A DNA stretch of 62,761 bases, filler included, from Phoronis australis (Eukaryota; Animalia; Phoronida), in NCBI GenBank assembly GCA_002633005.1. It is 4 parts of 4 records of this genome, joined end to end, with 100 filler letters (N's around TTAATTAATTAA, not from the genome) between each part and the next. Parts side by side here need not be neighbours in the genome. Positions count along the whole stretch, not along the records: positions 25,598 to 49,031 come from NMRA01001286.1; 3 more parts are not named here. One strand, written 5' to 3'. Within the stretch, counting starts at the first letter, position 1. Every line of letters begins with the position of its first letter. Positions 19,795 to 58,580 of this stretch are shown one piece after another. The notes under the pieces are model-generated. The model worked only from the letters and a program-made list of their open reading frames with translations, searched no databases and was not told the DNA's origin. The translations under genes and the position numbers were made by a program.

Positions 19795-20564
19795 GTACGC
19801 AGTATCAGGAAATATTTCGAAACATCAAAATTACATAAGCCTGACGTTCATTGATACACCTCAACAACCTCTTCACATCGTGTGCGTCAGTGCAATATTG
19901 GTTAGTTTCAGCAAGACGTTATCGTATATATCTACTATGACTGATACCACATTAAGTTTTCATTAAAAGTATGTTAAAGTCTGTTTTGTCCTATTACCAG
20001 ATATCAACAACTTTCCCATACAGCTCTCCAAAAAGAAAATAATGCTCCGAAACATTCGTCAACTTTCAACAGTTTGGAGGAAATTTTGAAATCTTGAAAA
20101 GTCCACTAAATTGCCATGCGTGATATATACGCTTTGGGTGAGATAGAGGGCAACTACAGAAAATAATACCCATCCAGAACCAAAAATATGCATTCTTTGA
20201 CACCGTGACGTGTATGTGTTTTAATTTAATATCACTTTAATCCCCATTCCAGAAAAAAAAAATTCAGCTATGAAGTCATCTGAACACTACTGATCACTAC
20301 TCATCAACAGAAAGTGGTCCATCCAACGAGAAGTTGAAGGCTGTACTTATGATTTTTAACAGCATTATCACCAGCGGTCAAATTATAACTATAACCGATC
20401 ATATCTACTTTCGTACAGCAACTTAATTAAAAAAATTCTAAGACTTATTCCCAAGAACAGTTGAGCTTGGTCTGTTATTGTTTGTGCATTCGAATCACAA
20501 TTTTGTTACGTTTTCGTTACTAAAATTTTTTGTAAACTAGAAAAATACGTTAGTCAAACCATAA

Positions 20565-25497: not shown

Positions 25498-25597
25498 NNN
25501 NNNNNNNNNNNNNNNNNNNNNNNNNNNNNNNNNNNNNNNNNTTAATTAATTAANNNNNNNNNNNNNNNNNNNNNNNNNNNNNNNNNNNNNNNNNNNN
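25498..25597. other. Artificial scaffold linker (N44-TTAATTAATTAA-N44); also at 49032-49131 and 53207-53306
   Basis: The same 100-nt pattern, with a six-frame stop 12-mer, occurs three times. Confidence 0.95.
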
Positions 25598-25975: not shown

Positions 25976-26245
<270 letters not shown>

Positions 26246-26410: not shown

Positions 26411-26745
26411 TGAGCCTTATTGCGTGTGTTTTAAAATTTAATCAAATGTTAATGCGGTGTTTGTAGATTTAATATTGCAACTATTTACTGCTCTTATGTT
26501 TCAAGTGTTGGCTTATTTTGTGGTAATTTAAGGACAACGAGGGCATATCGTAGTGCTACGGGAGTGTCTCGGGAAATATAGTCAGTGTACATTTGCCATA
26601 TTACGCCTTTACGGCTAGTCAAAGTTCGTTTAATAATAGTGGTCAAGACTGAAGCTCAAGTGTCGGGAAATATCTTTGCTCTGCGAAGTGCATTCTATGG
26701 GCAGCGAAAAGGTTCAAAATAGACAACACTGCCAAATAAACAAGT

Positions 26746-27055
26746 TAGTTTTCAAACAGACAGGTTATTTGGTTCAGTTTTGGCAAATAGACAGGTTATT
26801 TGGTTAAATTTCGACAAACAGACAGGTTATTTGGTTAAATTTCGACAAACAGACAGGTTATTTCGTTAAATTTCGACAAACAGACAGGTTATTTAGCGAA
26901 CGAACAAGTTAGTTGCGCCGAACAGACAGGTTACTCGGGCCGAACGAACAGGTTACTTGTCGAACGAACAGGTCACTTCTAACAAACAGACAGGTTAGTC
27001 ATCGAATGAACATGTTGGTCTTGCCAAACAGACGTAGTAGTCGAACAGACAGGAC
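26746..27055 (+). repeat. Left subterminal repeat array (31-bp units, AACAGACAGGT core)
   Basis: aaacagacaggttatttggttaaatttcgac occurs about 4 times, followed by shorter degenerate cores. Mirrored by acttgtctgttt repeats at 44790-44980. Confidence 0.9.
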
Positions 27056-27202
27056 AGATGGCGCTGTTCCAACTCAAGAAATACGGTTGACGTCACGAAG
27101 TCATGAGCCCCGCAATGAGCACAAAAATTCCAAAAAGTTGTTATTGGTGATCTGTTGCAGTGAAGACTGAAATTCGTTCATAGGACTGTTCTCAATTTGT
27201 CA

Positions 27203-27815
27203 TCGACCATTCTTAAATAAATTTATGGAATCGTGATGCGTTTGCTTGTTTAAACCAAGCTGCTGATTAAAAGTAAATGGTAGATTGAACTGTTTCACGA
27301 CCACGTACATAAACAGGTATTCAAAGCTTTTTTCGGCCACCCCGCCAATTAATCGTTATTCCATAATTTGAAGTCAAACCGTTAATATTATGACCTGCAA
27401 TCATGTGTGATCAGGTTTGTTATTTTGTGATCACGTGTTACTGGGTTATCCTCATCTTTGACGAAAGTTGAAACTGATGTGGTCCTGTATTCGCCGTACA
27501 TTGCGAAGTTAGTTATCGACCATTCTTAAAATAAATTTATGAAATCATGATGCGTGTGTTTGTTGAAATGAAGCTGCAGATTACAAGCAAAAATAGTAGA
27601 ACTGTTTACGACCACGTACTTAAACAGGTCTTCAAAGCTTGGTTCGGCCAGTGGCACCCCGCCAATTAATTGCCATTACATAAAATGTTAATATTACGAC
27701 ATGCAATCAAGTTTGTTACTTTGTGATTACATATTTTATAGGGTTATCCTCTTCTTTGAAGAAATTTGAAATTGATATGGTCCTGTATTCGTTGTACGGC
27801 TATTGCAAATTTAGT
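27203..27815. repeat. Diverged tandem duplication, ~310 bp unit
   Basis: tcgaccattcttaaa...ggtcctgtattcg appears twice (from ~27203 and ~27516). Confidence 0.8.
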
Positions 27816-28203
27816 TTTGCATATACACAACATATTTTGCTACCTTTATTTGCTCCCTTCGCGTCAATAGTACTCTACATGACATACATGTACTGAGGGT
27901 TAACAATCAGATTCGATGCTGTGGCGTTATACCCGCAGAGCCATTACACGATTTTGTTTCATAAGAAATTATAATCTAACGAGTCTCACAGTTAGTTGTT
28001 GGCGTCATTGGGACAGAAATACCTGTCACACAGTTTTCAGCACCCTGCATGATTAATTGCCTGAACACTTGACCGAGTTTATCGGAATGGATCTTATCTT
28101 TCAAATTACGGTTTCCTGGCCAGATCACCACCCACAGTTAGAAAACTGCGGTGAAGGGGCCCCAAAACCGGCTGCTGAAATTTTCTGATAATTTGCCGCG
28201 GAC

Positions 28204-28322
28204 TATAAAACACACCGCCACTTAGACAAGTGATACTTGTGTAATTTTACGGCTAAAGTTCGTGCTCTCCAATTCACTTTCGTCAAGCCTGAGAAGATTA
28301 TATCAGCTTTAACTTTTTAAGG
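28204..28322 (+). promoter_or_regulatory. Putative TATA promoter and non-coding first exon of the HECT cargo gene
   Basis: TATAAAA at 28204-28210, G|GTAAGT donor at 28322/28323, and an acceptor at 28606 three nt before the ATG at 28610. Confidence 0.45.
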
Positions 28323-28609
28323 GTAAGTGTGCTTTTTTATTGTTTTTAACTTTTAAATTCCCAGTCATATAATCTTTAAACGTCAAAAGAATAATAATCT
28401 TTGGCTATATAGCTAAAATATTCGGCACACGAGAAAAGGAATATCGTTTCCGTCCCGTGAACAATGTCATATTTTTGATCTGCTAATGAAAATGGCTGCA
28501 ACTAAATGGGAAAATGGTAATTGTTTACAATCCGAGCCTTTATTTTATTGAACCGTTCTGCAAAAGTTTTAAAATTCAAAAGTTGATACATGTACGTTTT
28601 TTATAGACA

Positions 28610-31600
28610 ATGGCTGAAAATGTCATCTCTCGAATACAATCGTTAATCAACGACTTATCCCAGTCCAGCACAACAAATCCATCCAACCAGCCGTCGACTT
28701 CGTCAACCACACCAGCCCCTGGGATGTCAGCTTCCCGGCCGTCTGCCATTCAAGAACACCGCCGACTGTTTGCACGAAACCAGGTAAGAATGTTGGTAAT
28801 TCAAATGAACAGCCGCCCTTTTTTGTGAGTCATAGCGGCCGGTATGGCGCCGGGTCGATGTTGGACATTCTAAGGAGCCCTTAAAGTTTGGGGGTCGACT
28901 GGCCGGGGTTAATGAAACCCCAGGGAATCGACAGGAAGTCGGCCCTTGGATTGTTGAAAATTTCAAGAGAACAGTTCATTTAAATTCGTTAACTTAAGAG
29001 ATACAAAATTCTATTTGTTTTGCCAAAAATGGAACATTTTGTCAAGTATGCGCGCATCATAGTAAAATATAACAAGCTTGCAGTTATACAGTACATGTAT
29101 TTAAAATTCTACGCGTATGTCACTGCGCCTGGTTGCATGAAACAGTCCCAAATTGGGACTCAACAAAGTTCCCTAAATTTACTGCGTATTTGAGGGTCTT
29201 TGAATACACTGGTTGTCCTGTCTTATGCTGCTTGAGTTGACTAAATCAATTTTATCTTTGATACAAATCGAGAGTGACTTTACGTTGAATTCTCATACTA
29301 TTGAAAATAAGTAGGGTTGTTTTCATGTAACGCGCATTTAAGGACTAAGTCCCTAATTCTTTTGACTGAATTAAGGGCTCAATTTTTAGTTTTATTATTA
29401 GAAAATGCCATTAGTGAAAGAAAAGCTCATAATAAAAATAGAATAATATAACAAATATTACATCTGTGCCTAAAGAACCAACAACGATAAGATTTAGGGA
29501 ACTTAGTCGAGTCCCTATTTGGGACTGTTTCATGCGACCTGACAATGTAACGTAAAAAACAAAAATTCGAAATTGTCGTATAAAAACCATAAAGACAAGA
29601 CAAGAAGGTGTTTGGGTGATCGAGGGAAGTAGTGACAAGTGCCGCTCATGGGGAAAGAATGGGAGAGCACTAAATGGTGACGACTGTGCTTTATTAGACT
29701 AGTCACAAAAACGGGCTCTGGTTGGTCTTTGTGGGCTGGTGGGAAGCATTTTCATTTGGTGCATTGTGATCTCCTCTTTAGATATCCTCACGGTATTAAG
29801 CTATGATTCTAAATAATTTAATTAATTATTCGATTCTGAATAGTTTAATTAATAATTACTTGTCATTTTTTTGTTTATTTTATTTTGGCATTGCTTCTTG
29901 CCTGAGTAGCAGTTTCTAAAATGGAAATCATTAACAGTGCGTGAAATATGCATAACTGCAAGATGATAAACCTATTTAAAATGCACGTCAGAAAAAAGAA
30001 ATGGGACTGTATTTACGGGCTATGTGACGTGTATTGTAAGAGCGTCACGCTGCAAACCGGAGTGGAAAATTAGAAACGAATTAACGTCCATTCAAAAAAA
30101 AAAACAGTGATACTCAGCACGACTCAAGCGAGATTAAGATTATGCAGGATCCTACACAAGTGTCCAAACTTCGTTAATTTCCTAACATCATATCTCAGAA
30201 ATACCTGATCGGATTCATATGAAACTCTAGGCACTGTGCAGTTCTCCCAAACTATGGTGATTATAGCAGTATAAGGACAATGCCCTATGTTTTGTTTATT
30301 ATGTCACTCAGTTAGACCATAATGCCGCCACATATTGGTTGAACATATGGTGGAATGTTTGTACTAACAGGGAGGGCAATCTATGAGGGGAGGTCCGCTT
30401 GACCTGAAACCTTATTTTTATAGCATTTCAAGTTGTCAACAGTCATCATGAATCTTTCGCAGTTGTCATCAGGGCGGAATTAACCTTAAACAGATCAGTT
30501 CATGTCACGGTCCACCTAATCCAAACACTTCTGGACACATGTAAACCATATTAAGGACAAATCAATTAGGCGATTCCTCGGAATACTGCTGACCTGTCAA
30601 AGCCTACAATTGTGAGATAGCTCTGTCTTTAAACTAGATGTAATAAAGAAACAGAAGGCTTAAAGTAGAAAAGGTTTTTAAAGTTAAACAAAGTCTTCGA
30701 ACACGGATACCATAGAGCTTGTGTAGAAAACCTCAGAGCCATAGCAGTAAATGTTTTAGAGAATGGTAGTACTTTTGAAATTAGTTAACTTTATCTAGAC
30801 TTTAGCTTACAGTGTGATTAGCCTTGTATACTTTGTACTGCATATGATACTGGGGACAAATACAATACAAATTTTAATTGTATTACACTATTATTTTACT
30901 GTAGTTAAATGTTTATTATGATTTGTCACATTGGTGGCAATGTCACATGCGACCTCAGCAATTCTGATCGTCCCAACACTATATACATGTACATGTATAT
31001 ACTACAAAAAACGTATGACACTCGGGACTAGGAATTCCACGGGTGCTTCATTTCAGCCGTCAATATCAAACACAAAACCCAATAAAGTACACAAAACAGG
31101 AGTTCAACAAACCATGAGCAATTGTTCTTTCTTTTGATAGCATTTACAGTGTCCTGCTCCGACGAGTTCGCAGCAAATTCGCGGTCAAAGCACCGCTGTT
31201 CACCTTTTGATAGCGCTGTCTTGAACGAACTCAATAGTATTTTTTATAATATTTTTATTACCTCTTTGGCACATTAGACATGATAGGATTACATGTGCAC
31301 TGGCTGTTCTTGACTACAACAAAGGTGATGTCAGAATGACAAATACTTAATCTATGGTGAGGCTAACAAGTTTAGTTATTCAAATACGTTGTCAATGCTT
31401 CAGAATCTTCCCTTCTTCCAAATTCGAGATTCAAGGTTCAGTTAAATTTGATGGCAATTTCTTTAAATCTAAATAATCACGATTCGATTTTTTAAAAAAC
31501 TTTTATACCTTATCTTTTTCATACTATTTTTGCTTATTTTAGACTAGACAACATCCATACAGAAGGAATCCCGCAAGATCTTCGGAATCTCGGGGTAAGT

Positions 31601-34600
31601 TGAAATGCAACTAAAGAATTTTTCAGCATTCAAGTGCCGGATTTTTCTTGTAATTTCGTCGAATATTGACTCGATTTGTTGGCGAACTTAAGCTGTTTAT
31701 TAATTATTTCACTTTGGAAGTGACGATCTACAACTTATTCTTTCAGAATCTCTCTTCACAAGACAGTTCGTGTGTTTGGAGAAAACGGACACCGATCTTG
31801 TCCCAACCACCACGCAAAAAATCTGTTTGGCCCGCTACGGCATGGGAGAGAAAACAATTCAGTTTTCACAAAAGGATGCCGACCATGTCAAGGAAAAATT
31901 GCATGAGTAAGTTTATCTGTCACGTGTGCTTAGTCCAAGGGAATGTGACCGCATATTTTCTTTACGGCTGAAAATAACTATTTGAAAAACCGAGTGTGCT
32001 TCTATTTTGCACACATTTATACCAAAGTCACTAAAATATAATGTTTGAAAATTGTTTATCTTTATTTTAGAACTTTCCCTGCTTTACAAGATGCCGGTGG
32101 TTTTGAACTGCTCATCACCGCAAGTGGTTCGCGCTCCAAATTACAGGTTGTCCACTGCGGATCGTGTGGTGTGGACAAATTGAAACAGTTTGGTTCCGGA
32201 CGAATTTACATTCGACCTATTCAAAGATGCCTCAGAAGGACCCAGCCCCGTGAAGAGGACGAGGACAGAGAAAAATGCGTCAGATGCCAACACGAATTTC
32301 CTGTCTCACGATTACGGGACCATCTGAGACTGTGCACAGTATTAGTAAGTACATGCAACATAAAGCCGAGTGCACACGACGTGTCGATTTGATTTTCATA
32401 TAATAATGTAAAAAGATTGAACCTGCGCGGGCGTTATCACCGTCTCACTGAAAATAGACTAAATTCCCCAATAATCCGGGACTCTCCCCCAAGAGGTTGG
32501 TAGGGAAGTACCCACTCAGACTTCCCGGTATCGCCTCTGATCGATAAGCAAAAATATGGAGGACCGGTTGACTGGTGACTTCATCATTTGGTATTGTCTC
32601 GGGTACCCATATTGCTAGTCGCCCAGGTGTAACGTTGGTCATGATTTTGAAAGTGCGATGGAGTCCTCTTCACAGTCTGTGTAGGGGCGCTTCCTGTGCC
32701 ATCGCCTCTTTCATCACAAGCCGGCATACTTCGTATCCACGTTTATTTAATAACGAGCTTTTGTACTGAAACATATTATGCAGTCGTCGTCAGAGGTGAT
32801 GTACTTTTTAATTGCTACCCTGCCTCCATGGGGGCTCATATTTACCATCACCATAATTATAACAACACTATGAGCTACAAAACTCCGCCGTTGGATAGCA
32901 TTTTGAAAAAGTGCGTAGGCCATTTCACAGGCTTGCACTTGCGGGAAATGCTGAAGGTTGAAGACAACTACATTTTCAAAACTTTTATTTGGCTAAGCAC
33001 AAATAAAAGTGAAGTTCATTATTCATTTTTATACATGATCAAACTTCTCTCTACAGATTGACAGCGAAGACGAGTCTGATGACGAGTTACCTCCCATAGT
33101 ACGTCCTGCTTCCCCACGAGTGGCATCGATATCGAGGTAAGCCTACTTATACGGAATTTCCCGTACATTTAAACTCGAAACAAATTCTTAAACGCGTCCT
33201 CATCTAAACTCGCTTTTGTCTTCAGTCCGAAATTATTCTAAAACGACACATTTTGAGCCAACGCTTTAAGCGGGCTTGGTTAGGGAGTTTTTTATTTGAA
33301 ATTTTCATGGACTGTAATAAATTCAAAGCTGACCTTTACATTTTTGAAATACGTTGTACATGTATATTTTTGTGTATTAAAAGCGTCTTTTTCTCAAAAT
33401 TTAGATTGAAGAAATTCTAATTGAAAAGGAGCATCTTCAGGGTTTTCTAATTTCGTTTGGCTGTTTAATCACCGGATATTACCATTAAAAAATTGTGAGT
33501 AAAACCGTGACAATTCAGGCCCATTTTGTCTTACTTCAAGGACAGCTGTGCGCAATAACAGGAGTATTTACATTCCAGTGATCACGAAGACACTGAACAG
33601 GTTCATGTGTCTCTTGCTGACAATCCGGATGAAGAGGAAGAAAATAGGTAACTTCTTAAGTAAACCATTCCCTTCTTTGCAAAGTTACATGCTTCATCGT
33701 GCAAGGGATATGCACTGTGAAGAAATCAAAACCTGAACACGTGTAAAGTTTCACATTGTAACATTAAAGCATTCCTCTGGTTATTTTCTGCACAAAATTA
33801 TGGTTCACTTACACCTACTTAAACCGTACCGGAAGGGGCTGATCTTTGGTGGTGCACAGTGAAATTAAATTGATGAAGTCACGAATTAGGATCAGACTGT
33901 GGAGTATACAGCTTTAAATAAATTTGGCAGCCCTGTTGCAACTGAAACAAATTTTCATTTATGGACAATTATGGTGAATAATTTTCTCTCAGGATACATT
34001 TACAGCAGTAGGAACGTTTTTGTTGTAGACACGATTCTGGCAAGTTAAACGTTGGGACTATTAATTTAATTACATCCATTCTATTCCCCAGAGAAATGCG
34101 AGAACAGGCATCCTTGGCTGCAAATTTCGATGCTCAAGTAGACGGAAACAGGTATCGTTCGGGTGTATACAAATCTCTTTAAAGTTGTTCATCAAAAGCA
34201 AAAAATTCGCGCAAAGTACAGTGTACAGGATTGTTGGACATGCACAATATATTAACGGGCCTGCAAGCTCATGATAATGGTAGAAAGTTTATATTGTACC
34301 TTCTGATGTGCACTATTGTGGCTGGCTTATTCTTCTCGTGACCTCTCATTAGCGTCCTTAACTAAATTTGCACGTGATGCTAAACGTAGGCGTTTGTTGC
34401 CACACGTCCTCTTTATTTTTACCTGTGTAAAGCACCACCAAAATGCATTGCTTTTCACCTGATGCAAAATCATTTCATTTGTGAACAAATTGTTACGTGT
34501 ATAACGAATAGGTACTTGAATTTATTTATTTCCTTTCAGTGATATTATTCCTGGCACATTTGAAGCGCACCCGGATGTCCAAGAAGTGATTAACAGAATA

Positions 34601-37600
34601 ATACAAGAGACGTGTGAAGCTGAGTGAGTGTTACACTATGTGATGTTAAAAATGCAACTTTTCCCACATATACCTTCCTTCAACACGTATTCAATACGGA
34701 AACAGAAGCAATTTGAAAATGATACTGAAATTATACGCGTAGACGCATGTATTGAAAACGAAAGAAAACGTTGAGCTTTTTGATGAAAAGAAATGTGCGA
34801 GGTCGGCAAAACGATATCAAAACAATTTGCAAAAAAGACAAGTATGGACGATTTCTTTTGAAAACGGGAACTAATAGTAACATTTTCAAAAAAGACGTAT
34901 TCTAGCGGACGACGCCTTAATAGGCACATAAATTCACTTAATTCATAGAGTTATTTCTTAATTGATTTTAGGGAAAGCAGGGAGCCAGTAACAGTTCTAA
35001 AGGCTTACAGAAGTGCGTTCCTGAAAGGACGCGCACTGGATGTTTTAGATATGTCCGCTGTACTGGACGGTGAAGTAAGCGACATATTTATATCTCGTAG
35101 TCGTTTGTGGGAAACTGCAGTGGAGGAAATCACTGCACTAAATAATATTCGATTTCCTCTCCGCGTCAACTTCTACGACGAAGAAGCGGAAGACTTGGGA
35201 GGACCTCGACGCGAGTTCCTGACACTGGCTCTCAAGCACGTGCGAGAGAATCTTTTAGTGTCAGATGAAGAGGACTCCCTGACAGTAAAATCAAACGACG
35301 ACTTGGGATTATCACGCCATCACTACTTTGTAGCCGGAATAATCTCAGGTACATTGCATTCAGGTTTTTACAATGTAACTACGCTGTCGTTATTGACTAA
35401 AAGAAATTCTATTCGAGATCAGAGTCACATTTATTGCATGTCCGGTTTATCTTTTAATAGTCTGCCGTACGTTTGAGCAAGTGCTAGGAAACAGCAGTCA
35501 GCAAAANNNNNNNNNNNNNNNNNNNNNNNNNNNNNNNNNNNNNNNNNNNNNNNNNNNNNNNNNNNNNNNNNNNNNNNNNNNNNNNNNNNNNNNNNNNNNN
35601 NNNNNNNNNNNNNNNNNNNNNNNNNNNNNNNNNNNNNNNNNNNNNNNNNNNNNNNNNNNNNNNNNNNNNNNNNNNNNNNNNNNNNNNNNNNNNNNNNNNN
35701 NNNNNNNNNNNNNNNNNNNNNNNNNNNNNNNNNNNNNNNNNNNNNNNNNNNNNNNNNNNNNNNNNNNNNNNNNNNNNNNNNNNNNNNNNNNNNNNNNNNN
35801 NNNNNNNNNNNNNNNNNNNNNNNNNNNNNNNNNNNNNNNNNNNNNNNNNNNNNNNNNNNNNNNNNNNNNNNNNNNNNNNNNNNNNNNNNNNNNNNNNNNN
35901 NNNNNNNNNNNNNNNNNNNNNNNNNNNNNNNNNNNNNNNNNNNNNNNNNNNNNNNNNNNNNNNNNNNNNNNNNNNNNNNNNNNNNATAATATTATTTTCT
36001 GGCACCAAGCACATATTTTCAAAAAGCCTTAAACATTAAAAACAATGGACACACATGAACACCGACATCGGAGCCTTGAAATGTGTTGAGAAATATTCAG
36101 CTTACCAACGTTTTGGCACATTAGCGGAGAAACGGTTGGGCAACCGACGCAAAACGCCTGTAAAGAGCAACATCCGGCAAACAAGAGTTTTCAAATTTGT
36201 AAAGTTTCAAAAAACGGTAATAATATGGAGGTTTTGTTTGAGTCTGATAATTTGCCCTGTCCACAACGGGGTGTTTTCTTAGGACTGTTATCAATTTTTG
36301 CCACAATTTTGCCATTTTACCCGACAATGATTAGCTTTTGCGAGCTGTTCGGCGTTAAAATGTGTAGCAATCACCATCCTCCCTAACTAATTCGCTCGGT
36401 ACTCGAAGTTCACGAAAAGATATTTATGTGAATTTCTTTTCATGGATGCAATACAATGTTAAAGCTCAAAGTGTCGCTGAATATTACTTAATACAAGGAT
36501 TAAAATTACCTTTTGAGAGCTGGTTCAATTTATTCCGCCAAAAAAAATTGATTGTTTCTTGTTTCTTCATGTAGTTATTGGATGTGTTACTATTGGTCTT
36601 TCCGATATTTTGTATCTTTAAAACATCCCCCTGCTAGACTTTAAACATTTCACAGCTTTGATCATTGTTCGAAACACTTCATAACCTTGATCACTGTTCG
36701 ACTTGTCTAACATGTTAAAACATAGTTTGGGTTGGCTTATAGACTTGCCCCTCACTAATGCATTACGCACGTGAAGTAATCCCAAGTTGCGGTGTTTCAA
36801 ATAAGACTAAGAGTATACTACAAGAAACAACAGCATTCTCATGTAATACAATGTATTGGGGCCATATCATGTCTGTCTGCCAAGGCATAACAAAAGTGCA
36901 TTATTCAAAGAAGCGCTGAGCGAATACTCTGGCGGCTAAATAACGGCTAGTGTCCCAAGCGTGTACTAATGAGATGGCTTCTATGTGGTCATTCAACAAC
37001 ACCATCTGTTCTTCAGTTAAGGGACTTTGAATAGTCTGTACAACCACACCTTCTTCATTGTTGTGTGGCGCAGGCGGTGTAGTAGGGTCGATACCAAATT
37101 CTGAAACTCCAGCCTGTCAAGAAATAAATTAAGAAACTCTTACCAAAGCTGAATCTATTNAGGCTCACGAATGACCCATTTAGCTGCTGATGTATATGAA
37201 GTACAGCCAGTGAGTCAGAGCTCCCAATGAATTATTCACTACACACGTCCAGCCACACTTCCATAAATAAGAATCAATTCAAACTTGAAGAAATGGCAAT
37301 AATAACAAAAAATTTAAGATAAGCGATGGTTTCTAGAAATACAGTATCTATTGAAATATATATTGTTTGCTTCTCTTGCAGCTGGTCGACGGGGTGATGT
37401 CTCGCTGAAGTCTATTCTCCGTTTTGTCACAGGGTTGGAAGTAATGCCAACTGTAGATTTTGCGGTGCATCCTTCCATTTCGTTTGTGCCTGTGCATGGC
37501 AATCAGACGTTTATCCCCACGGCCTCAACTTGCTCTAATCTGTTAAATTTGCCTGTGGAGCCATTGCCACCGCTCAGAGCACATACCCCAGGGAACTTGT

Positions 37601-37650
37601 TCGACCTGTATGATATGGCGTTTTCGAATACATATTTTGGGATGAAGTAA
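28610..37650 (+). CDS. Transposon-borne HECT-domain E3 ubiquitin ligase (G2E3-like HECT) with C2HC zinc finger; spliced
   Basis: Phase-compatible GT-AG exons: 28610-28783, 31543-31594, 31747-31906, 32071-32344, 33057-33136, 33579-33647, 34092-34151, 34540-34623, 34972-35348, [gap], 37382-37650. Motifs: FVCL..TD.VP..GMGEKTI, FPALQDAGGFELL..IYIRPIQ, CVRC..F....L.DHL..C, VNFYDEEAEDLGGPRREFL, ILRFVTG, PTASTCSNLLNLP, terminal YFGMK*. Confidence 0.85.
29126..29545. mobile_element. MITE with ~50-bp imperfect TIRs in an intron of the HECT gene (possibly PIF/Harbinger-type)
   Basis: ggttgcatgaaacagtcccaaattgggactcaacaaagttccctaaat at ~29131 and its reverse complement ending at ~29540. Confidence 0.75.
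35987..37159. repeat. Gap-adjacent duplicate of 37873-38425 plus 39148-39765 (probable allelic/mis-placed contig)
   Basis: Near-identical sequence and ORFs (MNTDIGALK..., MKHRNLGLL...), bounded by an N-gap and a single N. It lacks the ~720 bp at 38426-39147. Confidence 0.85.
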
Positions 37651-39506
37651 AAAGGCGTAACGGGCTGAAGGGTTGTTTGACGATACTTGAACGAAAATGA
37701 GCAAGTCTCTGGGTTTATGTCAGCAATTTTACTAACATTACGGTATCTCTAGTATAGGGGACTTGATGTCACCTGTTAGGTTTATTACATTGTTTGTTCG
37801 CAATATAGATCGATATACTGCAAGAATGTTTTTCTTCTGTAATCCTCGTTTCCACTGATAAAATAGAAGTATAATATTATTTTCTGGCACCAAGCACATA
37901 TTTTCAAAAAGCCTTAAACATTAAAAACAATGGACACACATGAACACCGACATCGGAGCCTTGAAATGTGTTGAGAAATATTCAGCTTACCAACGTTTTG
38001 GCACATTAGCGGAGAAACGGTTGGGCAACCGACGCAAAACGCCTGTAAAGAGCAACATCCGGCAAACAAGAGTTTTCAAATTTGTGAAGTTTCAAAAAAC
38101 GGTAATAATATGGAGGTTTTGTTTGAGTTTGATAATTTGCCCTGTCCACAACGGGGTGTTTTCTTAGGACTGTTATCAATTTTTGCCACAATTTTGCCAT
38201 TTTACCCGACAATGATTAGCTTTTGCGAGCTGTTCGGCGTTAAAATGTGTAGCAATCACCATCCTCCCTAACTAATTCGCTCGGTACTCGAAGTTCACGA
38301 AAAGATATTTATGTGAATTTCTTTTCATGGATGCAATACAATGTTAAAGCTCAAAGTGTCGCTGAATATTACCTAATACAAGGATTAAAATTACCTTTTG
38401 AGAGCTGGTTCAAATTATTCCGCCAAAGGTGTATTGAGTAAGACGCTCGTGCAACACATATGTAAACAGTACTTCATGAAACATTGCCATCGTCGAAATT
38501 CGACAAAATTCGCGGTTCAAAATCAAGAACAAATATCCATTCGTATACTTGTCTATGATTCGTTTCAACTCTGGATAAATCTCGTGTTGCTCTACGCACT
38601 TTAGCGACGCACCTGTAAATGATTCGGCACATACGCGTGCCCATGCAAAGACATCTCCAGTAACAAGTACGTTGAAAAATCCGATTGAGTTTCTAAATGT
38701 CGCAAACTGTGACAGCCTCAACAATTCAAACATTTTTCACATGCGATTTGTTTGAACAAGTTCAGTATGATGAAAACAACAAAGTAAATTTGGGAAATTC
38801 TTGAGCAGACTTTGATAAAGCAACGTAAAAACTGTACCGTGAAAAACAGCTGCATTTCCCCGCTTAGTTGTCTAAAATCGAATATTCCTTACTTCTGATT
38901 CCATGAAATCAAGTGGGATGTGTATGTTTACACACGCCATTTTCGAAATAGGAGTGGCCAAATCCAATAAACAATGACGTGTTACTTGAGTGAATGATGG
39001 TTTCGATGTTCTTGTTGATAATGGAAAAGAAATCCTGAATGAAAGGGATCTTTAAGATACCGATTTAATGAGAATAGGACAAAATGCAGATCGAAAAAAA
39101 TATATTTTAAAATCTTGGTACCCAGGTTAAAAATTGGAAGCCAAGGGAAAAATTTGATTGTTTCTTGTTTCTTCATGTAGTTATTGGATGTGTTACTATC
39201 GGTCTTTCCGATATTTTGTATCTTTAAAACATCTCCCTGATAGACTTTAAACATTTCACAGCTTTGATCATTGTTCGAAACACTTCATAACCTTGATCAC
39301 TGTTCGACTTGTCTAACATGTTAAAACATAGTTTGGGTTGGCTTATAGACTTGCCCCTCACTAATGCATTACGCACGTGAAGTAATCCCAAGTTGCGGTG
39401 TTTCAAATAAGACTAAGAGTATACTACAAGAAACAACAGCATTCTCATGTAATACAATGTATTGGGGCCATATCATGTCTGTCTGCCAAGGCATAACAAA
39501 AGTGCA

Positions 39507-42500
39507 TTATTCAAAGAAGCGCTGAGCGAATACTCTGGCGGCTAAATAACGGCTAGTGTCCCAAGCGTGTACTAATGAGATGGCTTCTATGTGGTCATTC
39601 AACAACACCATCTGTTCTTCAGTTAAGGGACTTTGAATAGTCTGTACAACCACACCTTCTTCATTGTTGTGTGGCGCAGGCGGTGTAGTAGGGTCGATAC
39701 CAAATTCTGAAACTCCAGCCTGTCAAGAAATAAATTAAGAAACTCTTACCAAAGCTGAATCTATTGGACGTAACAAAGACAACAGTCACAGTGTTTGTTA
39801 AGCTGACGCATATGCATCATCGTTAGCCGTAAGTGATCATTTATTTTTAAACTATTAAAGTGCAAACGTAGATGTGACTTGAACACTGGCAGATTGACAC
39901 CGTGAACGATGTCTTCAAGGAATTTGTGATGTCTAAAATGGCAACGAAAAATAAAATTGTTGCACTTTTTTGCAGTGCACGAAAAAAAACCCTACATTTT
40001 AGCTACAGAGCGCAAACGCATCTGCACCAATTAAAAATATAGGTCATGATGACTTTTATTCTCACCTCAGTCAACATTTCAAAGTACTCATTTGGAATCA
40101 AGTCGTTGACTTCTCTCATTCTGTGCAGACCACTGATGAATAGCTGAGTTGGGGATTTATTGTTTTCTGTTCGAATGCTGTGGTTGTTCCAAGACTCAGC
40201 GAAACAGGACAGCGCACGCTGAATGTTCTTCCCAAAACAATGATGTAAAAAAAAACAAATCGGTCTCGTCATCCGGACTCAATAAATCTTGTGACTCAAG
40301 CAACATGAAAGTATCGTAATATAGCGACGTAACGTTTTGCGTAACATCACGCCACAAACGCTCAATCCTAGAGTTGTGAACACTCTTGCCCGTAATGAAA
40401 CTTCCCCTTCCTGGACCTCTGTTTTGGTGGTTGAGCATGTAGTGGGCTACATCTCTATTCTCAACCCCTTTGTCCGCGCGCACTCGTGAAGGCAAACCCC
40501 ACCTTCTGGTTGCTTTGAGAAAGAGTTTAAGAACTGTACTGGACTTGTTGTTGCTGCTAACATTCAAGTAAAAAATAAGCCGTGAGAAGCCATCGATGGC
40601 GCCATGAATGACAAACTTCCACCTGCAAATATAAATAAGTTCACAACTTGTTAGCAATGCATAGTTTTGTCCAAATTTGCACACAAACATTCTACATACA
40701 CAGTTACAGAATTATTTGTCATTATTTTTGTACATTTTACAATCATTTGGATTTAAATGCTTTCGTTTTCCCAAGATCGATATATAAACGTAATTCACCT
40801 GATCAGCTTGTGATTGCCGTCAATATGAAGTAGGCTCAAAGGTGACTGGACGCTGTACACGCGCCGTCGTGTCGTACGGATTTTGCGGCAAATCACTCCC
40901 ACTGTGTCACATCTCCGCAAACAGTCTCTCAGACGATCGCGCTGAACTTTTAAACCCATTTCCTTGACAAGAATTCCTTGTATTATCTTGAAACCTAAAA
41001 AAGACAAATGCTTTAAGAGTATTTGTTCGTGATTATTGCTCAACTGCAACAAACAATTTTGTAATGCTCTTTCAGAAGCAATGACACAGGTGGCAACATA
41101 CCCCACCTCACCTGATGTTATTTAACAAGATTTTAATTAACATAAATAACCAGGCTCGTAATTGAAAATAAAATTATTTTACCGTTTTTTCAAATTTTGG
41201 AAAAATATTTAAAAACAAGTACAGCCCCAGAAATCGCTTTCGCATTATATCCAGGTTCTCATTCACTTGCACAGAATCACAAGTAATTATTTGACCATCA
41301 ATTCAGCTTTCTTGGTGTTAATATTCTTACGTCTATTTCATGTGTAATGTGTCAAATATCAATCTGAACCCAGTGGTGGATTTAGGGGTGGGACAAGGGG
41401 TCCATGCCCCCCTAAAATTCTCCCAGATTCCATTTGACAGTTCGGGGGTGCAAATGTCAGGAGGGCAAAATCCTGGCCAATACTATGGCCCTGGTTCCCC
41501 CTAACTCAAAATCCTGATTCCGCCCCTTGGACAAAGTTGAATTTTAAAATTAAAATATTTAATTCGTTCGTCCAAAGCATAACCTCGTTTTAGAGCTCAA
41601 TTTCAGTTAATTGCACAGAGCAAGCATAGTTATGATGTTTCTTCGGGGGCCTCGTTCATTCGAGGGGAAAGGTGCCTGTGCCTTCTGAGAGGCGACTTTT
41701 TCGTCGAGTGTGAGGAAAACCGTACCACCGGATCATCATCAATAGCAACCCCACCCTGTTGCAAGCTCTCATAGGCTGTGTCTGAAGTACATGTAGCATT
41801 TTTTGCTCTTTCAAATAGTCACCTGTTTGGATACATGTGGTTTGAACTACGGAGAGAACTTTACAATAACTAGGGGAATTTTTAGTCCTCGTGGGGGAAT
41901 TTCGGGGTATTTTTCAATATTTTTGAGAGGGGAATAGGGCCGATATTCGGCCCCAAAATCGATTGAGGGCCTTGTCCATTTTGGAAAGAAAATTGCATCA
42001 TCCTCCAACCCGTAGTCATGAAAGTACAGCGCCTGGCTAGCCGAAAATTCTCCGGTCGTTGCTATGGTGATCGGCAACCGAGATGCGACAAACTTTGGTG
42101 TAACTTTTCGAAAATATTCATAAATTTTACACGACCCAGATTTTGGGGCGTCAGCAGTACAGCTATGATACGCAAGACGTTCCAACCTGTTACATGAGTT
42201 TACTCAGGGGTGGAAATCAGAGTATCTTACATCTCTTCGCGAGTATCACAATATCAAATCTGGTTGCCAATCCGTGAACATAAGTTGTGGTGACATCGTT
42301 CTTATCAGTGACGAAAATACCCACGTGTCATGTGGTATGTGGGAAAAGTGGAAAAACTCAATCGCGGTAATGATGGACATGTGCGTTCTGTGGTTCTCAA
42401 AACGAAAAACGGACTAACCAGTAGACCCATTAAGAAACTACCCCTTGGAAACGTCAGCATAAACTGCACAATACGGACTCTATATAACTTACTCGATTGT

Positions 42501-43920
42501 GACTTATATATTTTGTTTACTATTCCTATTGTCTTGTTTCACATTTGTTTGCTGTTTTATTTCAGTATTGCCTTATTTTATGTTTGCCTGATTTATTTAT
42601 CGTTTCGATCATTTCCCGTTATTTTCACCATTTTTCGCGCCCGGGGAGAATATTGGAATGTGTTTATGACAGATTTTCATGGTTTATTAGCTTAGGTATT
42701 TCCTGTACATGTTCAGTTTAAAGTTATTATTGCTACCTCTTGACATATAATTACAAATCGTCCCAGCCCAAGCTAATCTTTCCCATTGGTTAGTTTTGTA
42801 TTTGGAGCACATTCTGATTGGTCGAACAGGTTCACTTGTATGTTATATGTTATATCTTAATACTATAACACCAGAAACTTTTAATGCATCATATCGAAAA
42901 AGTATTTTTCTCAACGAACCACCTCGGATTTTATCCTTGTACTATAAAAACCCACATCTTCCGAACCTCAACATCCCCAGGGATTATAAAACAGACATTT
43001 GAGAGTGCGTATTTTTTCTAGCCGTTCGAGCAACGCAGAATACAACCAGTATGCCGATAAGCCATCTGAGCTGTCGTAGCGAGCCTCGTTTTGGAACGCG
43101 ACTCCCGCACCAGGAGTTGGACAAACTACGTAACTTTTCAGTGATCCTGTTATGACTGAGGAATCTTCCTGTGAACACAAAACACGCAAATAACTTTTTT
43201 AACGTATTTGCCTTTTTGATTTTAATTGAGACACAGTCCGGTTTCCTGCGCCTGTATCATGCATGTTGTGCCCTAGTTAATAAGTAAAGTTGTGTTAGTC
43301 TCGAAATTCTTCTGTGATAAAAACGAAGTAAACTCTCAGAAAAAGGCAGTGTTTAAGTATATACTCTGAGTAGCAGAACATTTGAAACTACCTAACATAG
43401 TGGCACGTACCCATTTCATTCTTGGGCACCACAGCCTGATTGGAAAATGAAAAAGTGTTCTGTCGCACTGTTTTTTGAGGAGTTCTTAAGCAATCGCGTC
43501 ACTGTCTTTTTATGGCCCGTTCATACCAATAGCAGCAGCGACTACGGATTTCATAGGAATTTCAGGCGGTCTGGGATTAAACAAAATACTGCACCACGGC
43601 ATCATTTATAATAAAAGCGTTGGACGAGAACCAATTTGGACGAATTTTCAAAGGAAGTGAGGCAGTAATGCAACCAGGTACCGCATTACTGGGAGTCTAA
43701 ACACGACTCCCGTTTGGAACACCAGAGTTAGTAACTTAAAAGATTTAAGTTTTACCTGATCTTGGAAAATTGAATAGAATTCTGGTGACATGAGTATCCA
43801 GTTCCTCATCTGATATGTTAGAGTATTCGCTTCTGATGTTGAAGTGTCGCAATCGTCTCTTAACGGTGCTGACACTAACACCCATCATCTTAGAGATATC
43901 CAGAGCAGTGAAATTGTGCG
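39507..43920 (-). CDS. IS3-like (IS3EU) DDE transposase, spliced; 5' exon(s) probably in the gap; one apparent frameshift
   Basis: Exons 43920-43756 ([30 protein letters not shown]), 40994-40799 ([22 protein letters not shown]), 40622-40066 ([51 protein letters not shown]) and 39719-39507. A +1 shift falls in the A9 run at 40247-40255. Confidence 0.9.
41371..41530. mobile_element. Short hAT-like MITE in a transposase intron
   Basis: cagtggtggatttagg ... cctgattccgcccct; same terminal type as 13916 and 15705. TSD not clear. Confidence 0.55.
42133..43380 (+). mobile_element. BEL/Pao LTR retrotransposon 3' remnant (DUF5641-like C-terminus, PPT, 3' LTR)
   Basis: [23 protein letters not shown] / [23 protein letters not shown]...RPIKKL; polypurine ggggagaa at 42643-42650, then a putative LTR ~42651-43380 ending in ACA. 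Confidence 0.8.
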
Positions 43921-46429
43921 CTGTAAAATTACATACAATGTATGGCGGATGAGCTCTGCAAGTTATTTTAGAGTCAGACTGATCCACTATTTATGAAGTA
44001 CACTTCATTTNNNNNNNNNNNNNNNNNNNNNNNNNNNNNNNNNNNNNNNNNNNNNNNNNNNNNNNNNNNNNNNNNNNNNNNNNNNNNNNNNNNNNNNNNN
44101 NNNNNNNNNNNNNNNNNNNNNNNNNNNNNNNNNNNNNNNNNNNNNNNNNNNNNNNNNNNNNNNNNNNNNNNNNNNNNNNNNNNNNNNNNNNNNNNNNNNN
44201 NNNNNNNNNNNNNNNNNNNNNNNNNNNNNNNNNNNNNNNNNNNNNNNNNNNNNNNNNNNNNNNNNNNNNNNNNNNNNNNNNNNNNNNNNNNNNNNNNNNN
44301 NNNNNNNNNNNNNNNNNNNNNNNNNNNNNNNNNNNNNNNNNNNNNNNNNNNNNNNNNNNNNNNNNNNNNNNNNNNNNNNNNNNNNNNNNNNNNNNNNNNN
44401 NNNNNNNNNNNNNNNNNNNNNNNNNNNNNNNNNNNNNNNNNNNNNNNNNNNNNNNNNNNNNNNNNNNNNNNNNNNNNNNNNNNNNNNNNNNNNNNNNNNN
44501 NNNNNNNNNNNNNNNNNNNNNNNNNNNNNNNNNNNNNNNNNNNNNNNNNNNNNNNNNNNNNNNNNNNNNNNNNNNNNNNNNNNNNNNNNNNNNNNNNNNN
44601 NNNNNNNNNNNNNNNNNNNNNNNNNNNNNNNNNNNNNNNNNNNNNNNNNNNNNNNNNNNNNNNNNNNNNNNNNNNNNNNNNNNNNNNNNNNNNNNNNNNN
44701 NNNNNNNNNNNNNNNNNNNNNNNNNNNNNNNNNNNNNNNNNNNNNNNNNNNNNNNNNNNNNNNNNNNNNNNAAGTTGAGCCTACCAGGTTACTTGTCTGT
44801 TTGGTAACCTACTTAATCATTTGCCAACTTACTTGTTCGTTCAACAGTAGGCACTTGTTTATCCGACAGAATCTGCAAAGTTGTCTTGTCTGTTTGGAAA
44901 ACCATAGCATTCTTGACCTGTTTATTTGACGAATCACTTGTCTGTTTAGCAAACCACTTGTCTGTTTGTCAAACCACTTGTTTATTTGGCAGTGTTGTCT
45001 ATTTTGAACCTTTTCGCATAGATGTCATTACCAGCAATTCGTAAACTAGGTCATCCGCCAGGTTCTCTGCGAAAACTAGGTCATCGCTTATGGACCAGTT
45101 AGCTCTTCACTCTCCGCGTGTCCGCTACTGGAGAGAAGCACCAGAAAGGTTGTTCTACATTTTGTAGCCCAAAATTACCAAAGTTCAAATATATTCCGTT
45201 GAAAAGGAAAGACAAAACATACTATTACAGATGTCTGGCCAATCATGAGTCACTACTCGTAAGCAAATCAAAGCTGTCCTTACTCGTTGCCTTGTCTCGC
45301 ACTACCCGTCAATCGACTAACAGTTTTCAGTTCGCAATGCAACAATACAATTCTCATAAATTCAACTTGTAATGACCCCTTTCAATTTTAAACCATGCCC
45401 GAAGTACTCGGAAACAAATTATTGTTAGGTACAACGAGGTTTTTTCTCTGAAGTGGATCGTAAACACCTCAGGTGGCTGAGTTTTCCGCACATAGCTACT
45501 TTGGCCTAGAGCTGAATTCTTAGTCCCGCACTATAGGCCGGACCGGTCAAGGGCTAATCCCTGTTGTACGCACTACTTAAGCATTGGAATCAAATTGTTA
45601 TATACAGAGAAAACGTTTATTAGTATACTGGTGTGAATATTATCAGTGATTTAACCAAAAACTTCGAATTAACTAGACCCACTAATGATAGTCTATGACG
45701 ATAAACTGATATCAAAAGGCCAAAATTGGCAATTTTCGGCGACCCCATGTTAAATACAAAATTTTGTCTAATTTTCTTCAAAATCCTACATTTCAATCTT
45801 GATTATACTGACATCTGTTGGGTCTATCGGCAACTAACCGCACATGAAAGGCTTGGTCGAAAATTATCGTTTTCTCACATGCACTTTCGGGTTTTTAGCG
45901 GCGATTCCACTGATCGAAGCGACAAAATAAGCCAAAACTTTGGCCATACCATGTTAAACATAAAATTTTTTCCAATTTTGCTGAAACTTGGCCACGTTTT
46001 TAACAAAATACTTATCTATGTCATGTGCTATCGGCAAATGTGATTGATTCATAAATAAGACCCTCACGCTGTGTTTTCTGCGAATCCCATGTATTCTGAA
46101 GGGGGCTGAGTGATTTTCGCGCATGCGCAATTCACGGTTTCAATAATGCTGGTAATGGTACTTGCAAGAAGTTAGGATTGCCGTACTCGGTTGCACGTGG
46201 AGAATGCCGTGGTTTTAGCTGCAGCAATTTATTCTTAGTTGACAGAGATTAGTTGTGTAAATACTGGTTGATTGTGTATAGATTCACTAGCATTTACAAC
46301 TTACTGGAAGTGACACAGACAGTGTGGATAGATCACTGAATTAATTGCAGAGAGTTACTTTCAATACAGCACATTTTTTCAGGAGTCATCCTTCAGTCCA
46401 AGCAAACCGGATGTTTTTTACCCAAATAA

Positions 46430-47230
46430 GTTATTCGTTAAACCATCTTGAAAATGGTTGTCCTAATCATCAGGAGCCAGACAAAAATTATTGTAATGGA
46501 CGTGCTAACCTAAAAAACTCGGGATATGGCGTGTCTCTGGAATCTGAAGTTCTTACACGAAGCAACTAGTTGGTGGCCATCTTAGAAAATGGTGGAGGTA
46601 ATCAGAGCCAAACGCAATGAGTCTAAATATGGACTAGTCGACCCAGAAAACCTGTGATACAATGTTTGAAGCAAGACGCACTAATCTGTTTGTGCGATGT
46701 TGGGCGATTCGAAATAGTTTTGGAGGCCATCTTGGAAAATGGCTGATGGTGTCACCACAGCCATGCAAAACTTTTCCAGTGGATTTGTTGACCCACAAAA
46801 TATAGGTAACCTTTTTGAATTTTTACTCTATCACATTCCACTCTCGAGTTATAATGATCATCTGCAAATCTGGCGGCCATTTTGTCCGCCATCTTGGAAA
46901 TTGTGGAAGTAATCATTAGTGCCAAATGCATAGAGTCTCAAAGAATTAGTCGACCCAGAAAACCTATGATGCGACGTTTGAAGCAAGGCGACACACTAAT
47001 CTGTTCGTGCGAAGTTGTGCGACTCGACAAGTAGATTTGGCGGCCATCTTGGGAAATGGCGGACGGTGTCACCACAGCCATGCAAAACCATCTCCAATGG
47101 ATTTTTTGACCCACAAAACATAGGTAAACCTTTTTGAATTTTTATTCTATCATTATCCACTCTTGAGTTATAGTGAGCATCAGAAAATCTGGCGGCCATT
47201 TTGTCCGCCATCTTGAAAAACCAACTTCCG
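46430..47230. repeat. Tandem ~312-bp repeat rich in GCCATCTTG/AAAATGGC motifs (probable TE internal repeat)
   Basis: agtcgacccagaaaacct at ~46636 and ~46948; ggcggccattttgtccgccatcttg at ~46872 and ~47191. Confidence 0.8.
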
Positions 47231-50769: not shown

Positions 50770-51600
50770 TGTTAGTTAGGAACCTGGAGATTTGATCAGT
50801 GTATACACCTACCTTAACAAGATAGTGTGGTCGACGGTGTCAAATGCCTTCTTTAGACCAATAAAAACAGCATCAGTCAATAATCCTTGATACATATTGT
50901 ATAAACATGGTCAGTGTTAGTTTTTAGTGCTGAATGGAGTGGTCGGAAACTAGACTGGGCATCAGACAAGAGGTTGTTAGTTTGGAAGTAAGAATGAAGC
51001 TGTTTGTGGACCCATTTTTCAAGGGTTTTTGGTATAGATGGCAGGATTGGAATGGTTCTGAAACTTTCACAGTATGATTTGTCACCGTCTTTGAAAAATG
51101 GAGTAACAACGGACAATTTCCACTCTGGTGGTATGGTTGATGTTTTCAATGATAAATTGATCAGTGAAGTAATAGGCTGAAAGATTGTTTCAGCAGATAT
51201 TTTAAGGGTTTTAGTACTTATGCCATCAATTCTAGTAGCAGAATTGCCATCCATTGATTTAAGTTGCTGGCAAACAAACTTAGCGTCAACCTCATTGAAT
51301 TTAAAAGTTATATCTTCGCTGACCTGGGGTGCAAATAAATGACTAGTGTTTCCAGATTTTCGGGCTAGGTTATAGCCAATATTCGTGAAAAAGTCATTAA
51401 AGGTATTAGCCATGACTGCGTTACCAGATGTCATGCCGTCATCCGTATTCAGTTCAGCGATATTAGTATTTGGTTTCCCTGGCAAAACAGACTTTATAAT
51501 TTTCCATAAAGATTTACCATCTGATTTGTTGTGATTAATTAATGTATTATAATAATCTGCCTTGTCCTGTTTTGCTGGCTTATTTTTTAGATGATGCACT
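50770..51600 (-). mobile_element. CR1-group (L2/Crack/Daphne-like) LINE reverse transcriptase fragment
   Basis: KSLWKIIK, ANTFNDFFTNIG, WKLSVVTPFFKDGDK, FRTIPILP, QSSFRPLHS; continues after a shift as VFIGLKKAFDTVDH. Confidence 0.85.
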
Positions 51601-51656
51601 GTTTTGAATTTGTTTTAGTCACAAGTATTACGCGAACGTTGAGCAATACGTTTAAG

Positions 51657-56372: not shown

Positions 56373-56654
56373 CCGGCACCATCTCGTTTTTTTACAGCGT
56401 TGCCTCGTTTTGATTTTCCGATAGAGGGTGCAATTTAGACTCAGCCCAAGTTGGCCTGAAATGGACGATTGCAGAAATCGGTTATAACAGTTGAAAACAA
56501 AATCTTTTTCCACAATGAAATCATCTCATTGAACTGACAATATGTCACAGTTTCATTTGTTTAATTTGTTTTTAAACTTAAGTCAAACCCCTACCGTGCA
56601 CGTGCGTGTGTCATATCAAGAAGGCAAAGAGATACTAAAAACTTCACTGAGTTT

Positions 56655-58517: not shown

Positions 58518-58580
58518 ACATTTTGGATTTGCAGACAGTTGTTAGACAATTGCTAACTGAAAATGCTTGTTGTTTTCAGA

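Follow-up and report, generated by a model that had tools for sequence, protein, structure and literature searches.

IS3EU elements are eukaryotic DNA transposons that have TA..TA ends and usually 6-bp target-site duplications (PMC10045372), and their structure and function have been described as largely unexplored (PMC11934779). Those of fungi possess TAYGG..CCRTA ends and an alpha-kinase gene situated opposite the transposase gene, and they also carry TET/JBP dioxygenases that are thought to counter methylation (PMC12730594), while the plant members, known as GingerRoot, pick up fragments of host genes (PMC6839031). This report concerns an IS3EU element of Phoronis australis whose second gene, located opposite the transposase gene, encodes a predicted HECT-type ubiquitin ligase. 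The element lies at 26696-45020 of a 62,761-nucleotide stretch of assembly GCA_002633005.1, hereafter termed the window, which joins parts of four records end to end; positions 25598-49031 derive from NMRA01001286.1. A HECT or ubiquitin gene is mentioned nowhere in the available parts of the four papers above, nor was "HECT" found by a term search in those of PMC5718144, PMC9587614, and PMC5751038. An IS3EU-HECT link was not found in the literature searched, which included neither Repbase (with its possible annotation of second proteins), nor the main review (10.1266/ggs.18-00024), nor most subscription papers.

A preliminary description of this DNA, made from the sequence alone, had proposed an IS3EU transposon with two convergent multi-exon genes, and both the family assignment and the layout stood. 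The transposase is encoded on the minus strand in four visible exons, matches PF24764 (E 2e-50), retains an intact D-D-36-E catalytic triad, and shares, by eye, the core motifs of Repbase IS3EU transposases (PMC10045372 supplement), the nearest being IS3EU-1_CVi, IS3EU-4_DR, IS3EU-1_SK, and IS3EU-3_CGi. The plus-strand gene, whose 3′ end faces that of the transposase gene, consists of eight exons with canonical GT-AG introns, open over 423 residues (28610-35348), together with a last exon at 37382-37650 that matches Pfam HECT (E 9.7e-7). A protein search for this family returned 698 relatives, and the named ones are all from animals, namely bivalves, corals, nemerteans, a brachiopod, echinoderms, and a sponge.

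Evidence that the ligase gene belongs to the transposon comes from related loci. A set of 95 loci with a related transposase was assembled from the best 80 of 477 on metagenome contigs, which came from 31 of 64 parts of the collection, and from 15 in genome bins. With an independent HECT profile, for which 16 proteins identified without recourse to the loci were used, a HECT sequence was detected downstream and on the opposite strand at 28 of the 95, downstream on the same strand at none, and upstream at one; the 28 positive loci represent 17 assemblies, ten of the loci being from a single assembly. When profiles were iterated on the loci, the downstream and opposite class rose to 43 of 95, with one in each other class, and HECT was found in 20 of the 30 loci having at least 5 kb of downstream sequence. 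The pairing of HECT with the IS3EU transposase is not due to chance. Moreover, paired TAYGG ends were recognised at 13 of the 95 loci, and HECT sequence lies inside all 13 (broken in L072). Perfect 6-bp duplications bound nine of these, representing eight distinct insertions with TATGG ends; three others have none, and one ends at a contig edge. Since HECT lies within the duplication-bounded ends of these relatives, the ligase gene is a component of what moves, and very probably it belongs intrinsically to this lineage of transposons. The earlier proposals that the HECT gene is mobile with the transposase, and that the pair would recur between terminal repeats with duplications, were borne out in this manner; rather than occurring as a single-copy host gene without a transposase neighbour, HECT sits inside the terminal repeats beside the transposase in relatives.

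Several other hits were encountered during these searches. The transposases on contigs from GTDB genome bins assigned to archaea or bacteria (L081-L095), among which L084 is a complete multi-exon element, were rejected as prokaryotic relatives; since the bins are metagenome-derived and mostly of animal-associated taxa, and L084 is multi-exon, all 15 are likely host-animal DNA. Viral contigs were likewise rejected as a source, with seven pattern matches and no relative among them. The transposase of L070 (401-1819, plus strand) has a weak N-terminal match to a SAM domain (E 0.009), and clusters combining HECT and SAM also appear in the Atlas. Finally, the near-identical HECT genes P0001 and P0318 of Tegillarca granosa carry two independent annotations as hypothetical proteins, and each lies on a contig of equal length, as would be expected of mobile copies.

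Three parts make up the second protein, namely a ubiquitin-like domain followed by a C2HC finger and then a HECT domain that keeps the conserved cysteine; in the relative P0231, the ubiquitin-like domain, finger, and HECT N-lobe occur in one reading frame. Pfam offers no match for the conserved domain at the N-terminus. In the L009 homologue, its predicted fold (predicted local distance difference test score, pLDDT, 94) has a beta-grasp topology, and the top structural matches are nearly all ubiquitin-like (best Z 7.2, root-mean-square deviation (rmsd) 2.4, 75 aligned residues; best Foldseek E 1.3e-3), although all these scores are middling and point to no specific family. A profile of the domain retrieves 2,745 clusters at 50% identity. 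The C-x2-C-x11-H-x3-C finger is present in 11 locus segments as well as in the window and weakly matches several families; its best match is the RNF125-type C2HC finger (E 0.17), and Pfam zf_C2HC_14 is found in five of nine members (best E 2.4e-6). A ubiquitin-binding (UBZ) reading of the finger, obtained for two of nine members only (E 0.04), was rejected. In the RING ligase RNF125, the C2HC finger is needed for binding of the ubiquitin-conjugating enzyme (E2) (PMC4944129). RING- or PHD-like domains were found neither in the 423 N-terminal residues (Pfam on three exons) nor in the full-length relative P0297, each of which contains the ubiquitin-like domain and a single C2HC finger. An Atlas search with a full-length relative retrieved only clusters named HECT or hypothetical, and named relatives of the ligase are labelled "hypothetical", "HECT domain-containing", or "HECT-type E3"; the suggestion in the preliminary description that automated annotation would probably name the gene "G2E3-like" is plausible. 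N-terminal parts of other kinds also exist: P0123 has a TDP-43_N-like N-terminal part, and in L044 a RING-like finger (5616-5816, minus strand; E 7e-8) precedes a HECT of the long type that has no introns and lies at the end of the contig.

The HECT domain itself is shortened in the nearest relatives of the window protein. The GG motif of the N-lobe stands 190-211 residues away from the cysteine in these relatives, 277 in L044, and ~282 in Smurf1, and one clean block of ~77 N-lobe residues, present in L044 and P0287, is absent from P0297, P0126, P0123, P0124, and L070 (five of five short-type sequences aligned). Smurf1 and HUWE1 have an insert of 65-70 residues relative to the HECT profile. 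Because the block is also missing from the unbroken genomic frame of L070, the short HECT does not result from a skipped exon. The block is what we take to be the E2-binding small subdomain of the HECT N-lobe. The E2 site is located in the N-lobe, and SMURF ligases depend on an adaptor for keeping the E2 bound (PMC6457168). The short type retains the cysteine together with the motif around it and the FG tail, a model of this type (P0122) adopts a two-lobed HECT fold (Z 23.1, rmsd 3.5, 289 aligned residues), and the window cysteine aligns through the profile with the cysteines of AREL1, Smurf1, and HUWE1. The window copy, whose own segment lies in an assembly gap, would presumably share the N-lobe deletion of these relatives.

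The ends of the window copy agree in large part with what had been reported. The left terminal inverted repeat (26696-26745, plus strand) begins with TATGG at 26696, and its core, 26704-26745, matches 44976-45017 perfectly over 42 bp, the longest inverted match between both ends; terminal inverted repeats longer than 30 bp are present, measuring 42 bp without mismatch or 68 bp at 88%. Subterminal repeats stand behind both ends, with 12 units at the left and seven at the right by one loose motif, and the left array (26746-27057, plus strand; units of ~31 bp and shorter) likely holds putative transposase-binding sites. The right subterminal and terminal repeats (44772-45020, minus strand) have an abnormal outer end. 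Read inwards, this end passes from TATG directly into the core, being either five bases shorter than the left terminus or clipped at 45017. The flanking hexamers, GCATTC and GATGTC, show no target-site duplication at the window copy, no displaced outer part of the right end was found downstream of the element in the window, and the terminal repeat has no DNA match among the 95 related loci. A contig (X5) that is identical to the window over 44772-45017 and then continues with 797 unlike bases is what would be expected if the end is intact in another place and damaged in the window copy. A very high-copy repeat adjoins the right end at 45018-46500, with contig depths of 7,000-10,000; a partner end for the repeat starting at 45018 was not found, and neither the ends nor the family of this repeat were identified. 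Depth is also high on the left-end contigs of the element, at ~3050 (X1) and ~350 (X2) relative to 42-61 and 5.6-7.3, respectively, on contigs of a neighbouring poly(A)-binding protein (PABP)-like exon and on intron contigs, and in both X1 and X2 the ends are covered ~50 times as deeply as the interior; depth does not equal copy number, and these values point to many short copies.

The preliminary description had counted two gaps, and there are three N breaks inside the element, at 35507-35985, 37160, and 44011-44771; nor did that description include the ubiquitin-like domain, the C2HC finger, the shortened N-lobe of the nearest relatives, the lack of a duplication, or the frameshift. The first break likely holds ~104 missing residues of the HECT N-lobe, judging from an alignment with P0297, and the third separates the transposase gene from the right end. 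Between the first and the single N at 37160 lies a block (35986-37159; 1.2 kb) that includes the last transposase exon and duplicates, at 99% identity, the two stretches 37871-38427 and 39148-39765, with four mismatches in each. Since the X1 contig depth over parts of the originals (~46) resembles that of the PABP exon, this block is likely a misplaced haplotype. One gap-free contig (25598-35506) joins the left end to HECT exons 1-8, and another (37161-44010) joins the last HECT exon to the transposase. None of the contigs listed bridges the 44011-44771 gap, the first two breaks lying outside the stretches compared. One intact insertion is not proven, given the three breaks, the duplicated block, the lack of a target-site duplication, the abnormal right end, and an apparent frameshift in the transposase, so that the proposed single element held as to its terminal repeats and genes and fell short as to an intact insertion. 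We infer that both ends belong to one insertion. A 6-bp duplication is only usual for IS3EU elements and is found in relatives, and its loss is therefore read as damage or mis-joining; moreover, three of 12 scorable paired-end relatives also have none, and the condition of the window copy is thus not rare. The window copy is a real IS3EU DNA transposon, albeit a damaged and probably decaying member.

Both genes of the family carry marks of constraint and of shared descent. The C-lobe cysteine is kept in 40 of 41 sequences (by a loose motif; the column is visible in the alignment). Ratios of nonsynonymous to synonymous change (dN/dS), which are point estimates without a significance test, were obtained for 14 pairs with unsaturated transposase; in four diverged pairs (transposase dS 0.06-0.26), the ratio is 0.42, 0.16, 0.32, and 0.13 for the C-lobe, the value of 0.42 belonging to L003/L005, and 0.02-0.19 for the transposase. 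Trees and a Mantel test were computed for 27 of 42 pairs, with four left out as too short or containing stops and 11 as near-duplicates. Distances of the two genes correlate across these 27 non-redundant pairs (rho 0.31, p 0.002), host kinship not being controlled, and in either tree the window copy falls into a group with L005 and L007 (98/87 and 100/99). The comparison of phylogenies that had been called for was therefore favourable for the window clade and for overall distances and unfavourable for other pairings, which conflict; the history would be one of long co-descent of both genes with some swapping. Presence of the ubiquitin-like domain is not clustered on either tree, likely since many contigs are short. 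L062 (14237-14530, minus strand) is a complete element with a more canonical ligase C-lobe and an unrelated N-terminal exon that lacks a Pfam match, and it forms with L042 and L052, both of which are in the tree, a separate HECT clade that perhaps represents a second capture.

As to function, the ligase most likely ubiquitinates the element's own transposase, a reading to which a probability of roughly 45% may be attached. In this scheme, the transposase would bind the subterminal repeats, cut, and integrate with a 6-bp stagger, and the ligase, made from the opposite end, would ubiquitinate it, thereby clearing the transposase from the DNA after integration or capping its level. If the E2-binding part is indeed missing, recruitment of the charged E2 would fall to the finger, to the ubiquitin-like domain, or to the complex of the transposase. 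An analogy for removal of the transpososome is the Mu transposase complex, which is disassembled by ClpX. Since fungal IS3EUs hold an alpha-kinase opposite the transposase, the slot appears to take protein-modifying enzymes (PMC12730594).

A number of observations weigh against the transposase as the target, or against so close a bond between the two genes. No ligase match occurs in 10 of the 30 long loci, seven of the eight duplication-bounded insertions come from one assembly, and none of the eight is of the short-HECT type. The two trees are only partly congruent, L009 grouping with L053 by transposase and with L024 by HECT, and this conflict suggests swapping of ligases and hence a target that is not partner-specific; shared host kinship could also enter into the correlation of distances. 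Near-identical pairs gave dN/dS values of 0.3-1.5 from very few changes (three at 1.1-1.5 and three at ~0.5), and P0125 has a Tyr at the catalytic cysteine position. The RNF125 finger acts by stabilising the RING domain (PMC4944129), and the second protein has no RING; moreover, the HECT of human G2E3 is described as catalytically inactive (PMC12511632). Finally, ligase activity and substrate are predictions from sequence, and most of the few RNA reads on exons of the ligase run antisense (depth 1-3).

The main rival to ubiquitination of the transposase, a real if lesser possibility, is that the ligase ubiquitinates a host protein that acts in chromatin, in a small-RNA pathway, or in DNA repair and thereby eases escape from silencing or integration. 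The TET/JBP dioxygenases of fungal IS3EUs, thought to counter methylation, provide a precedent (PMC12730594), and the partial conflict between trees, the varied N-terminal parts seen in P0123 and L044, and the great diversity of the ubiquitin-like domain family (2,745 clusters at 50% identity) would fit substrate-recruiting modules that depend on the host. Against this reading stand the correlated distances and the clades that the ligase shares with the transposase; moreover, no chromatin-reader domain was found in the window's protein, and the RNA reads on the ligase exons run largely antisense. It is less probable, and on the whole unlikely, that the ligase of the window clade cannot bind an E2 for want of the small N-lobe subdomain and acts instead as an inactive scaffold, a ubiquitin-binding adaptor, or a factor for targeting the transposase. 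The ~77-residue deletion that separates P0297, P0126, P0123, P0124, and L070 from L044 and P0287 is what invites this explanation, as do the 65-70-residue insert of Smurf1 and HUWE1 relative to the profile, the precedent of G2E3 (PMC12511632), and the one relative without a cysteine; yet the short type keeps the cysteine, its motif, and the FG tail, its model is still a two-lobed HECT (Z 23.1), and the L003/L005 C-lobe has a dN/dS of 0.42.

That the ligase is a passenger or host gene beside a transposon, or that the assembler stitched the 18-kb unit from different copies, is very unlikely. The three breaks, the duplicated block, the missing end duplication, the unlike flanks, and what are likely tens of copies of the ends speak for this reading, and GingerRoot elements do pick up host gene fragments (PMC6839031). 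Against this, two gap-free contigs tie the left end to the ligase and the ligase to the transposase, the same layout recurs at 28 of 95 loci in 17 assemblies, duplications enclose eight insertions, and the absence of a duplication is shared by three of 12 scorable paired-end relatives; stitching could touch the right end of the window copy but not the family-level result. Returning to the transposase as target, a more specific and rather improbable version may be put forward, in which a large clade of animal IS3EUs uses a minimal HECT that lacks the E2-binding subdomain, keeps its cysteine, obtains the E2 through its finger or ubiquitin-like domain, and dismantles its own transpososome after integration. 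If true, E3 ligases would have a further, new mechanism, and a eukaryotic element would itself encode an equivalent of the transpososome disassembly that is driven by proteases.

The ligase gene is laid out on the plus strand, its exon joints being those of a predicted gene model and not of reads; none of the 15 joints listed, out of 189, is a splice joint of this gene. Exon 1 (28610-28783) begins with ATG and aligns to P0297 from residue 2, and exon 2 (31543-31594) is known from the model only. Exon 3 (31747-31906) encodes the first half of the ubiquitin-like domain, as judged by the model and domain comparison, and exon 4 (32071-32344) its second half and the finger (32276-32335). Exons 5 (33057-33136) and 6 (33579-33647) form an acidic linker and, like exon 7 (34540-34623), derive from the model only; a more upstream acceptor for exon 6 was rejected since it gave stops or a broken frame. 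Exon 8 (34972-35348), 46% identical to P0001, starts the HECT N-lobe, and the last exon (37382-37650) contains the C-lobe, the catalytic cysteine codon (37531-37533), and the stop. P0297 is one uninterrupted frame of 636 residues, and its identity to the model is 34% across residues 2-422 and 47% across the last exon, an alignment that leaves 104 residues for the gap; ~104 residues of the N-lobe are hence outside the window. RNA reads on the ligase exons (31558-35506) are few and mostly antisense, with a depth of 1-3 and a strand rule taken from the PABP exon. These reads could, as a weak suggestion, reflect read-through from the convergent transposase gene, making double-stranded RNA over the ligase exons.

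The transposase gene, on the minus strand, ends in an exon at 39507-39719, a boundary from the model. An X5 contig, putatively of RNA, connects 40065 directly to 39718, with nine differences in 827 bases, and matches the predicted intron. The core exon (40066-40622) contains the second Asp (40472-40474) and the Glu (40361-40363) and has an apparent +1 frameshift in a run of nine A's (40247-40255), located after the catalytic Glu; across 40104-40578, a span that includes this run, an X1 contig has one base fewer, and the X5 contig does not. The next exon (40799-40994) holds the first catalytic Asp (40819-40821) and is separated by an intron (40995-43755), which is occupied by high-copy repeats and by a fragment of BEL/Pao type (DUF5641, 42169-42440, plus strand), from the helix-turn-helix exon (43756-43990), the 5′ boundary of which is not fixed. 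The first transposase exon lies outside the window. A paralogous transposase, ~92% identical and of ~3-fold depth, supplies the X6 and X8 reads over 40330-40626, and at 40426 all five X6 and all 11 X8 reads originate from it.

Elsewhere in the window, a highly expressed PABP-like exon (RRM_1) lies at 26011-26241 on the minus strand, just left of the element, and its RNA reads splice from both ends into sequence absent from the window. The element may sit in the first intron of this PABP-like gene, or the scaffold may be mis-joined there. Other host genes are represented by a TFIIE alpha subunit exon (58557-59270, plus strand) and an intronless DUF229 gene (17986-19824, minus strand). Decayed non-LTR retrotransposon frames occur at 20554-23260, 50880-51614, and 56594-57142, with weak RVT_1 matches at 21642-22166 and 50880-51614. 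Near-identical tandem duplications surround other gaps (6091-8704 and 9609-11929; 51657-53238; 53485-54857) and are likely due to haplotype duplication in the assembly, and the identical N44-TTAATTAATTAA-N44 linkers at 25498-25597, 49032-49131, and 53207-53306 are scaffold joins and not biology.

In terms of significance, the barely studied second gene of animal IS3EUs gains an identity and a testable job, and a lineage of DNA transposons is seen to be plugged into the ubiquitin system. Moreover, a ubiquitin-like domain family of 2,745 clusters, with no Pfam match, is defined. G2E3 offers a case of wider interest. Twenty copies of "G2E3" have been read as a deep-sea adaptation (PMC9700323), G2E3 matches have been reported among copy-variable repeats (PMC5638112), and it may be hypothesised that multi-copy HECT or "G2E3-like" animal genes, sometimes read as adaptive expansions, are in fact parts of transposons. 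Were this so, many "G2E3 expansions" would be bursts of transposition. A natural HECT without a subdomain thought essential would, for its part, provide a direct test of how HECT ligases are loaded with ubiquitin.

Among known two-gene transposons, PIF/Harbinger elements have a Myb-like partner protein and VANDAL elements encode the anti-silencing protein VANC. The IS3EU element resembles these in possessing a dedicated second protein that aids transposition or survival, and we know of no two-gene transposon of the PIF/Harbinger, VANDAL, or Mu kind that uses an element-encoded ubiquitin ligase. With G2E3, compared by description only, the window protein shares a divergent HECT, and the RING-like finger upstream of the L044 HECT recalls the RING plus HECT layout of that protein; G2E3 differs in that its gene belongs to the host, its catalytic domains are RING-like, and its HECT is reported to be inactive. 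Canonical HECT ligases (NEDD4/SMURF, HUWE1, UBR5, AREL1, and E6AP) have the same two-lobed fold and C-lobe cysteine, whereas the window protein is mobile, has an N-terminal ubiquitin-like domain of no Pfam family together with a C2HC finger, and has nearest relatives without ~77 residues of the N-lobe. The likeness to IS3EU and GingerRoot elements extends to the integrase-like DDE core motifs, the TA or TAYGG terminus at the left end, the subterminal repeats, and, in relatives, the 6-bp duplications, although the window copy lacks such a duplication and measures 18.3 kb, in contrast to 6.6-7.5 kb in most complete relatives. Finally, the fungal IS3EUs share with this family the TAYGG..CCRTA ends, the 6-bp duplication, and a second enzyme gene opposite the transposase, and the difference lies in the enzyme encoded there, which is a kinase (plus a dioxygenase) in fungi rather than a ubiquitin ligase (PMC12730594).

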